A stretch of 30,004 nt of DNA from a virus (IMGVR_UViG_2872198387_000003); one strand, 5' to 3'; shown: positions 16,472 through 16,782, counted from the first letter of the stretch. The notes: generated by a model from the sequence alone, not told the origin. Program-made: numbers and translations.

Positions 16472-16546
16472 TGGAGCGGGCAGCGGGAATCGAACCCGCA
16501 TCATCAGCTTGGAAGGCTGAGGTAATAGCCATTATACGATGCCCGC
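16472..16546 (-). tRNA. tRNA-Gly (anticodon UCC)
   Basis: The reverse complement GCGGGCATCGTATAATGGCTATTACCTCAGCCTTCCAAGCTGATGATGCGGGTTCGATTCCCGCTGCCCGCTCCA folds as a cloverleaf with encoded CCA. It looks like E. coli glyT, from memory. Confidence 0.9.
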
Positions 16547-16549
16547 ATA

Positions 16550-16625
16550 TGGTGCCGACTACCGGAATCGAACTGGTGACCTACTGATTACAAGTCAGTT
16601 GCTCTGCCTGCTGAGCTAAGTCGGC
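16550..16625 (-). tRNA. tRNA-Thr (anticodon UGU)
   Basis: GCCGACTTAGCTCAGCAGGCAGAGCAACTGACTTGTAATCAGTAGGTCACCAGTTCGATTCCGGTAGTCGGCACCA. The 7-bp acceptor and anticodon stems are good. There is one A-C mismatch in the T-stem. Confidence 0.8.
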
Positions 16626-16627
16626 GC

Positions 16628-16704
16628 TGGCCCACCACCGAGGACTCGAACCTCGCACCGTCAACTTAGAAGGTTGATGCTCTATCCGGATGAGCTAGTG
16701 GTGG
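16628..16704 (-). tRNA. tRNA-Arg (anticodon UCU)
   Basis: CCACCACTAGCTCATCCGGATAGAGCATCAACCTTCTAAGTTGACGGTGCGAGGTTCGAGTCCTCGGTGGTGGGCCA. All stems are perfect. The first base pair is an unusual C1-G72. Confidence 0.85.
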
Positions 16705-16705
16705 T

Positions 16706-16782
16706 TGGTGGCCCTTGCTGGACTTGAACCAGCGACCTGGCGATTATGAGTCGCTCGCTCTGACCAACTGAGCTAAAGGGCC
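16706..16782 (-). tRNA. tRNA-Ile2-like (anticodon CAU, ileX/ileZ type)
   Basis: GGCCCTTTAGCTCAGTTGGTCAGAGCGAGCGACTCATAATCGCCAGGTCGCTGGTTCAAGTCCAGCAAGGGCCACCA. The T-arm and anticodon arm closely resemble remembered ileX rather than the elongator Met tRNA. Confidence 0.85.

Follow-up and report, generated by a model that had tools for sequence, protein, structure and literature searches.

The viral DNA IMGVR_UViG_2872198387_000003, a stretch of 30,004 nt referred to here as the window, carries exactly four tRNA genes on its minus strand, which ARAGORN places head to tail from position 16782 to position 16472. We consider it likely that this array is the tRNA cassette of the type of lambdoid prophage that carries chromosomal ipaH in Shigella and enteroinvasive Escherichia coli (EIEC). 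The array consists of four structurally sound tRNA genes, and in the window its promoter and all of its genes are intact. As judged from gene sequences and codon counts, the cassette most likely boosts the supply of minor tRNAs for phage, ipaH and virulence-plasmid genes.

Gene content and structure of the array

In transcription order, the genes have the anticodons CAU (Ile2 type), UCU (Arg, the position called slot 2 below), UGU (Thr) and UCC (Gly). According to the ARAGORN coordinates, neighbouring genes are 1, 2 and 3 nt apart, and when the minus strand is read each of the four genes ends in an encoded CCA. An initial annotation of the window, made from the sequence alone, had described four head-to-tail tRNAs with this start and end, order and set of anticodons, and it proved exact to the base; its spacer lengths and its statement that every gene encodes its own CCA were borne out by the coordinates and the read. 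The orthologous arrays in RefSeq are annotated by PGAP as tRNA-Ile, tRNA-Arg, tRNA-Thr and tRNA-Gly.

The initial annotation had suggested scoring with ARAGORN as a check on the genes. All four were called, and none of them is in the pseudogene range, as their scores against the Rfam tRNA family RF00005 (70.5 bits for the CAU gene, 56.4 for Arg, 69.8 for Thr and 64.9 for Gly; E-values 1e-11 to 1e-15) are far above the gathering score of 29 bits. The anticodon loops (CUCAUAA, CUUCUAA, CUUGUAA and UUUCCAA, respectively) are all 7 nt long, with U33 and a purine at position 37. There are no non-standard pairs in the Arg gene, one A-C pair in the T stem of the Thr gene and one A-C pair at the base of the anticodon stem of the CAU gene. 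Two peculiarities singled out previously, the C1-G72 pair of the Arg tRNA and the T-stem mismatch of the Thr tRNA, were both present in the structure check. When the whole precursor was folded as a single strand (z = -1.7), the cloverleaves were not reproduced; such a fold is uninformative for tRNAs.

Origin of the tRNA genes

The CAU gene is identical to ileZ of Shiga toxin (Stx) phages at 74 of 77 positions (96%), to K-12 ileX at 69 of 77 and to metT/metU at 54 of 77. Its being far nearer to ileX than to metT upholds the earlier description of this gene as Ile2-like. It reads GGCCCUU...AAGGGCC-A-CCA and has C4-G69, C5-G68, a paired 1-72, A37 and A73, which we take to be features of a lysidine-dependent Ile2 tRNA: the 1-72 pair sets it apart from the initiator, while C4-G69 and C5-G68 presumably let TilS discriminate against tRNA-Met. 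The CAU gene is predicted to be of Ile2 type rather than an elongator Met gene.

Compared with argN of Stx phages, argU and argO, the Arg gene shows 83%, 75% and 60% identity, respectively. These values place it on the argN lineage, with which it also has C1-G72 and the T arm in common, and descent from argU or argO was ruled out on the same grounds. Slot 2 can be described as an argN scaffold in which UCU replaces UCG. Its predicted function, the reading of AGA, is the one that argU and argO have, and its lineage is a different one. With A at position 20 in the D loop (AUCCGGAUA), a UCU anticodon and G73, the sequence fits A20, C35, U36 and a purine discriminator, which we assume to be the identity elements of arginyl-tRNA synthetase. 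When ten distinct slot-2 sequences from different prophages were compared, 98.1% of cells were paired, five pairs were changed on both sides and C1-G72 was invariant. The observed covariation score was reached by none of 500 shuffles and no shifted register came close. Slot 2 evidently represents a real tRNA lineage under structural constraint.

The remaining two genes match the host. The Gly gene is identical to glyT over 75 of 75 positions, and the exact sequence from the window was found in 72 of the 76 arrays examined. The Thr gene matches thrU of K-12-type genomes at 74 of 76 positions (97.4% over 76 nt), the two differences being T-to-C changes in the D loop. As host thrU has the same A-C pair in its T stem, the mismatch noted in the phage gene is native and not a lesion. 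In the host, the two genes belong to the operon thrU-tyrU-glyT-thrT-tufB, with spacers of 8, 116 and 6 nt, in which tyrU lies between thrU and glyT. Capture of Thr-Gly as a single piece of the host operon was rejected because tyrU and the 116-nt spacer separate the two genes there, whereas the phage genes stand 3 nt apart behind a phage-type Ile2 and Arg pair. By these comparisons the array is a mosaic of phage-lineage genes (Ile2 and the argN scaffold) and copies of host thrU and glyT.

Promoter and transcription

A sigma-70-type promoter precedes the array (Table 1), and the 9 nt between it and the first tRNA gene are G+C-rich. Of 36 distinct upstream sequences, drawn from 134 Ile2 sites, 33 have TTG... 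and TA(T/C)(T/C/A)AT at the same fixed distance from the Ile2 gene, while the 17-nt promoter spacer falls into several unrelated sequence classes. That the hexamers are kept while the spacers are unrelated argues for selection on the promoter hexamers. In Stx phages, too, the first tRNA is preceded by these hexamers, equally far away, and in an Stx2 phage a primary start site has been mapped between tR' and the tRNAs, in the paper describing StxS (PMC7547250). With its own conserved promoter the array need not depend on Q, and transcription of the cassette is probably independent of Q antitermination. For the same reason, a silent or dead prophage could still alter the tRNA pool of its host.

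Upstream of the promoter, an intrinsic terminator ends an antirepressor-type operon. Its hairpin has a predicted energy of -19 kcal/mol (z = -5.8), a stability equalled by none of 200 shuffles. A consensus terminator scan of positions 15900-17700 reported none and so missed this hairpin, which was later established by folding. The intact prophage of E. coli VL40 has terminator-like hairpins in the interval that separates the array from the holin gene. A second promoter-like match in the window, at 16558-16531, is regarded as chance, as it lies inside the Thr and Gly genes and uses the TATAAT of the glyT D loop.

Distribution and association with ipaH

The Ile2-slot 2-Thr core, for which at least 80% of a 251-nt query covering these three genes was required, is present in 617 of 5426 complete E. 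coli genomes (11%). Two layouts were the most frequent at the 134 sites collected from E. coli, IMG/VR and species-representative genomes: Ile2-1-Lys(UUU)-2-Thr-3-Gly (54 sites) and Ile2-1-Arg(UCU)-2-Thr-3-Gly (28 sites), both of which keep the 1/2/3-nt spacing. Stx-type arrays have UCG in slot 2 or have lost the anticodon arm, and short, odd loops occur in other prophages.

The Arg form was surveyed in the same complete genomes with a 98-nt query comprising the whole Arg gene and both junctions with their spacers. It matched 16 genomes: ten at 100%, with two to five copies each in 36 places, and the other six as variants of 94-95% with one copy each. An ipaH query matched exactly ten genomes, and these are the ten with the 100% Arg junction; no ipaH-negative genome of the 5426 has that junction at 100%. 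The four-gene layout is thus not special to Shigella, and only the Arg-UCU version tracks ipaH. In VL40, a single prophage at bioA/ybhB bears both the array and ipaHa, 28 kb apart; in the window, 12 kb separates ipaH from the array. The scan of species representatives found three copies in S. flexneri SFBU1023 and three in E. coli ECMA0423, and the flanks of the window array are shared by none of the three arrays in the SFBU1023 genome. The Arg-UCU four-gene form was found in no isolated phage of the phage collection, where the best matches were of the Lys type at ~94%. A full-text literature search found no paper describing this four-tRNA array, queries for "ileZ" returning mostly unrelated words.

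Several variants were also recorded (L-numbers denote loci). The C1-G72 scaffold of slot 2 occurs with the anticodon UCG, with UCU, with UUU and C33 at a position where U33 is near-universal, and with loops of 4-5 nt that ARAGORN calls Ser(tga), Leu(taa), Pro(agg) or "???"; these loop variants are found at L003, L006, L007, L012, L040, L051, L077, L101, L107 and 17 Stx-like loci. Decayed sister arrays from EIEC genomes are present at L002 (3001-3072), L144 (10629-10699) and L001 (9079-9154); their decayed fourth gene, annotated as tRNA-Val, has CUUACAG as its anticodon loop, lacks CCA and has lost 1 nt from the 3' strand of the acceptor stem. The slot-2/Thr junction was also seen outside Escherichia and Shigella, in Pseudescherichia vulneris (L010), Rosenbergiella sp. 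(L012) and a Chryseobacterium-labelled contig (L015). The last of these and the Rosenbergiella contig, which is short and of high coverage, may be contamination or mislabelling.

Proposed role of the cassette

Taken together, AUA, AGA, ACA and GGA make up 17.2 per 1000 codons in 37 K-12 core genes, 76.7 in 16 virulence genes of pWR100, 40.2 in the ipaH gene of the window and 46.4 in 26 genes of the intact VL40 prophage. Phage, ipaH and virulence-plasmid genes thus use the four codons 2 to 4.5 times as often as core genes. Taken singly (pWR100 versus K-12 core, per 1000), the frequencies are 31.0 versus 3.0 for AUA, 12.3 versus 1.1 for AGA, 19.0 versus 5.8 for ACA and 14.4 versus 7.3 for GGA. 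The initial annotation had held that core genes seldom use these codons and that ipaH and plasmid virulence genes use them commonly, and the counts agree with it, as a correlation only. Of the host genes concerned, argU, thrU and glyT are single and Ile2 has two copies (ileX and ileY).

In the lysogen, the sigma-70 promoter would produce one precursor of ~315 nt without Q antitermination, and the upstream terminator would insulate the cassette from the antirepressor-type operon. RNase P would then cut each 5' end, leaving the upstream tRNA with its CCA and a tail of 1-3 nt that RNase T or PH would trim, and TilS would turn C34 of the CAU tRNA into lysidine so that it reads AUA. The supply of tRNAs for AUA, AGA, ACA and GGA would rise as a result. 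Precursor transcription and the RNase P, RNase T/PH and TilS steps are predicted here by analogy with established E. coli tRNA biology. The tRNA cluster of phage T4, a lytic phage, is likewise tightly abutted, co-transcribed and separated by RNase P; several T4 tRNAs have no encoded CCA and undergo extra 3' maturation, whereas the window array encodes every CCA.

Provided that the four minor tRNAs are expressed, their gene dosage in Shigella and EIEC is several times the usual one, and the codons they read are 4.5-fold enriched in genes of the virulence plasmid. Going further, the Arg-UCU form might be a translational adaptation of the invasive pathotype and an unrecognised chromosomal virulence-support factor. 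Under this proposal, ipaH prophages would have re-coded slot 2 to AGA and two to five promoter-bearing copies would have been retained even in dead prophages, multiplying the dosage of Arg-UCU, Thr-UGU and Gly-UCC and adding Ile2 for the translation of AT-rich virulence-plasmid and ipaH genes. We put this forward tentatively and think it rather doubtful.

A number of observations weigh against a role in rare-codon supply. In most related cassettes slot 2 is Lys-UUU, and as its codon, AAA, is common, the rare-codon rationale does not extend to every member of the family. The Thr and Gly genes merely duplicate host genes, and ACA and GGA are only moderately rare. Physical linkage within one prophage family can explain the association with ipaH, which for that reason is no demonstration of a benefit. 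Individual copies have decayed: in seven of the ten best EIEC matches and in the VL40 ipaHa prophage, a "Val-UAC" pseudo-tRNA that lacks CCA occupies the fourth position, and in one VL40 copy two substitutions break the Thr anticodon stem, so selection on each copy must be relaxed, at least for Gly and Thr. Lastly, the predicted leader of the transcript is only ~2-3 nt, which is short for RNase P, and the mapped start site comes from a related Stx2 phage and not from the window array.

Some of these points would also fit a neutral passenger, that is, a leftover of a dead prophage that owes its persistence solely to small size and linkage to ipaH and that makes no meaningful contribution to the tRNA pool. 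The window prophage is heavily degraded (it has IS600, IS911 and IS2 and no lysis or structural genes), the decayed Gly and Thr genes elsewhere are what would be expected of such a leftover, and linkage to ipaH in one prophage accounts for the pathotype association. We nevertheless think a mere passenger unlikely, since the promoter and four genes are intact although the DNA is disrupted on both sides; the window array is 99.4% identical to that of VL40 as against 95.4% over the full 969-nt aligned block that includes it; the 98-nt Ile2-Arg-Thr junction is perfectly conserved in ten genomes; and the promoter hexamers are kept across diverged spacers.

The variation of slot 2 invites another explanation, namely that the cassette mainly replaces host tRNAs destroyed by anticodon nucleases or toxins and has little to do with codon matching. 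The slot-2 anticodon loop varies strikingly (UCG, UCU, UUU with C33, shortened loops), and anticodon-loop changes of this kind have been reported for phage tRNAs that escape anticodon nucleases. All four loops in the window are standard, however, and the Gly and Thr tRNAs, being identical or nearly identical to those of the host, would be cleaved alike; we know of no nuclease that targets this set of tRNAs, and counter-defence appears highly improbable as the main function. Least probable in our estimation is that the array serves chiefly as a site of genome plasticity, a target for tRNA-directed integrases and a source of repeat homology among its two to five copies or with the host tufB operon. 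In the window, in L096 and in E. coli EPSSH018, where the tRNA end is of glyU type, an integrase element does abut the 3' end of the Gly gene exactly, and there are several array copies per genome with exact matches to host genes. This would account for truncation of the prophage but not for the conserved promoter, the intact cloverleaves and the compact spacing, and a search of the window and of 36 kb of EPSSH018 revealed no second att repeat. A supply of minor tRNAs remains the reading that we prefer.

Comparison with known tRNA cassettes

Late-region cassettes of rare-codon tRNAs are already known in lambdoid prophages from the Stx phages, and the mechanism proposed here is not new. In Stx phages (933W/Sakai type; here Stx2a_F349) ileZ-argN-argO is likewise in the late region downstream of Q, and was seen between Q and stx. 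The two cassettes are alike in having Ile2 first (96% identity) followed by a 1-nt spacer, in the C1-G72 scaffold of slot 2 (83%), in the promoter hexamers and their distance, and in the proposed role of supplying rare-codon tRNAs. They differ in that slot 2 of the window reads AGA (UCU) and that of Stx phages CGA (UCG), and the window has no argO; it adds host-derived Thr-UGU and Gly-UCC at spacings of 2 and 3 nt, and the cargo is ipaH rather than stx. The initial annotation had seen Thr and Gly as an extension of the Stx-phage set, which is correct in so far as ileZ-argN-argO exists in those phages and incorrect in that the Arg gene of the window is not argO.

The Ile2-Lys(UUU)-Thr-Gly cassette found in numerous lambdoid prophages of E. 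coli, such as phage vB_EcoS-689R5 and that of APEC O1, has the same four slots, the 1/2/3-nt spacing and a pre-holin position. Its Gly gene is identical to that of the window and its Thr gene differs by two D-loop bases. Slot 2 of the Lys type has UUU with C33, U73 and a T-stem A-C pair, whereas in the window it has a standard UCU loop, G73 and perfect stems.

Post-Q tRNA genes have also been reported for Sf6, ST64T, PS3 and phage 21, and in SfI the Thr-UGU of an Asn-Thr pair at this location has been tied to an excess of ACA codons in the phage (PMC3636060). These Shigella and Salmonella phage genes lie just downstream of Q like those of the window, but they differ in number and kind, and Ile2 and Arg genes are not reported among them (PMC3636060). 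What the present array adds to the known kind is the mosaic of phage and host genes, its own conserved promoter and the exclusive, multi-copy co-occurrence of the Arg-UCU form with ipaH.

Prophage context

The intact lambdoid prophage of VL40 aligns collinearly with the window, at 95-99% identity, over a stretch that starts at the Gly 3' end (16472), takes in the nin and replication region and extends to ~28300; copies of the insertion sequences (IS) IS600 and IS2 break the collinearity. The array stands after the late antiterminator gene (DUF1133 or Q) and before holin-lysozyme-Rz in VL40, in CFSAN029787 and in phage 689R5. In the window, the order in the direction of transcription is the DUF1133 gene, isrK/C4, IS600, an ORF6N remnant, the terminator, the promoter and the four tRNA genes; the DUF1133 gene has the same position in VL40, CFSAN029787 and EPSSH018. 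Homology to VL40 stops at 17434 and picks up again at 18859. The Q-like gene is separated from the array by IS600 and the antirepressor-type module, and an integrase remnant and IS911 have taken the place of the lysis genes. The post-Q position given in the initial annotation holds for the intact orthologues, and a Q-like gene is indeed upstream in the window; there, the site is interrupted by these insertions and has lost its lysis genes, and Q dependence is not needed given the conserved promoter. The window prophage is a remnant from which the lysis and structural genes are gone.

Table 1. Features of the window around the tRNA array and elsewhere (positions counted from the first base of the window)
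Feature	Position	Strand	Basis
tRNA, anticodon CAU, Ile2 type (ileZ/ileX-like), 77 nt, CCA encoded	16706..16782	-	ARAGORN, Rfam
tRNA-Arg (UCU), slot 2, 77 nt, C1-G72, discriminator G73, A20, CCA encoded	16628..16704	-	ARAGORN, Rfam
tRNA-Thr (UGU), 76 nt, thrU copy with two D-loop T-to-C changes	16550..16625	-	ARAGORN, Rfam
tRNA-Gly (UCC), 75 nt, identical to host glyT	16472..16546	-	ARAGORN
Sigma-70-type promoter, TTGCAG-17 nt-TATTAT, ending 9 nt before the first tRNA	16792..16820	-	Consensus scan, conservation
Intrinsic terminator (hairpin and U run) of the upstream antirepressor-type operon	16871..16899	-	Fold, sequence read
ORF6N-domain (antirepressor-type) gene, 3' part, cut by IS600	16991..17434	-	Pfam ORF6N, E = 5.6e-18
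IS600 insertion, open reading frames 17544-18362 and 18398-18700	17435..18858	-	Open reading frame list, gap in VL40 collinearity, annotated matching DNA
isrK, C4 antisense RNA and a1b1 targets (P1-type immunity RNA module)	18867..19068	-	Rfam, 75.6, 77.6 and 52.2 bits
DUF1133 protein, Q-like late antiterminator	19088..19762	-	Pfam DUF1133, E = 5e-108; Phage_antitermQ, E = 6e-6
Integrase-element flank at the Gly 3' end with first integrase codons	16285..16471	-	Homology break, sequence
IS911 copy, replacing most of the integrase gene	15036..16284	+	Pfam transposase and rve; annotated matches
Integrase fragments: amino acids 391-473 at 15041-14793, 472-531 at 13587-13408	13408..15041	-	tblastn with EPSSH018 integrase; Pfam Phage_integrase
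IS600 copies	533-1689, 11731-12887, 17435-18858, 28369-29525		
IS2 copies	8068-9341, 26568-27841		
ipaH gene, 571 amino acids, LRR and NEL domains	2942-4657		

Homology to the intact prophage ends exactly at 16472, the last base of the Gly gene. The flank that follows contains the reading MIQLSSSHKLPAVYYLYQRNGVYY, which resembles the N-terminus of the EPSSH018 integrase. This flank was found only in the window and in L096, with a relative in EPSSH018 beside a 538-amino-acid integrase. The same kind of element forms a ~6.6-kb insert between the Gly tRNA and the holin gene in EPSSH018, where the tRNA 3' end has become glyU-type, giving a hybrid with two mismatches, and in strain ET82 a related integrase adjoins chromosomal glyU. 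A tRNA-Gly-directed integrative element has evidently landed in the Gly gene of the prophage. The search for a second attachment (att) site, as a copy of the Gly tRNA 3' end with at most three mismatches in 25 nt, found none in the window or in the 36 kb of EPSSH018. In the window, the 1249-bp IS911 block recurs at 100% identity in L016 and L018, and between the two integrase fragments are an IS3-family fragment and a full-length isrN match (13931-14073, 156 bits). Loci with integrase elements of this kind are the window (13408-16471), L006/L139 (1-7000), L004 (2991-5998) and L096.

At least seven IS copies fragment two or more prophage remnants within the 30 kb, and the array and its promoter are untouched by them. 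The isrK and C4 antisense RNA module, of the P1-type immunity kind, is present twice, at 7234-7422 (plus strand) and 18867-19068 (minus strand), and each copy opens an antirepressor-type gene (Ash/Rha at 7183-7815 and the IS600-split ORF6N gene at 16991-17638). A hok/sok toxin-antitoxin locus lies at 21865-22189 in the nin region of the prophage remnant (sok, 118 bits). Just upstream of ipaH, the Shigella small RNA CssrB matches the minus strand at 2631-2813 (151.6 bits), and a DUF4376 gene of tail-fibre-assembly type (4837-5460) converges on ipaH, as it does at the right end of the VL40 ipaHa prophage.

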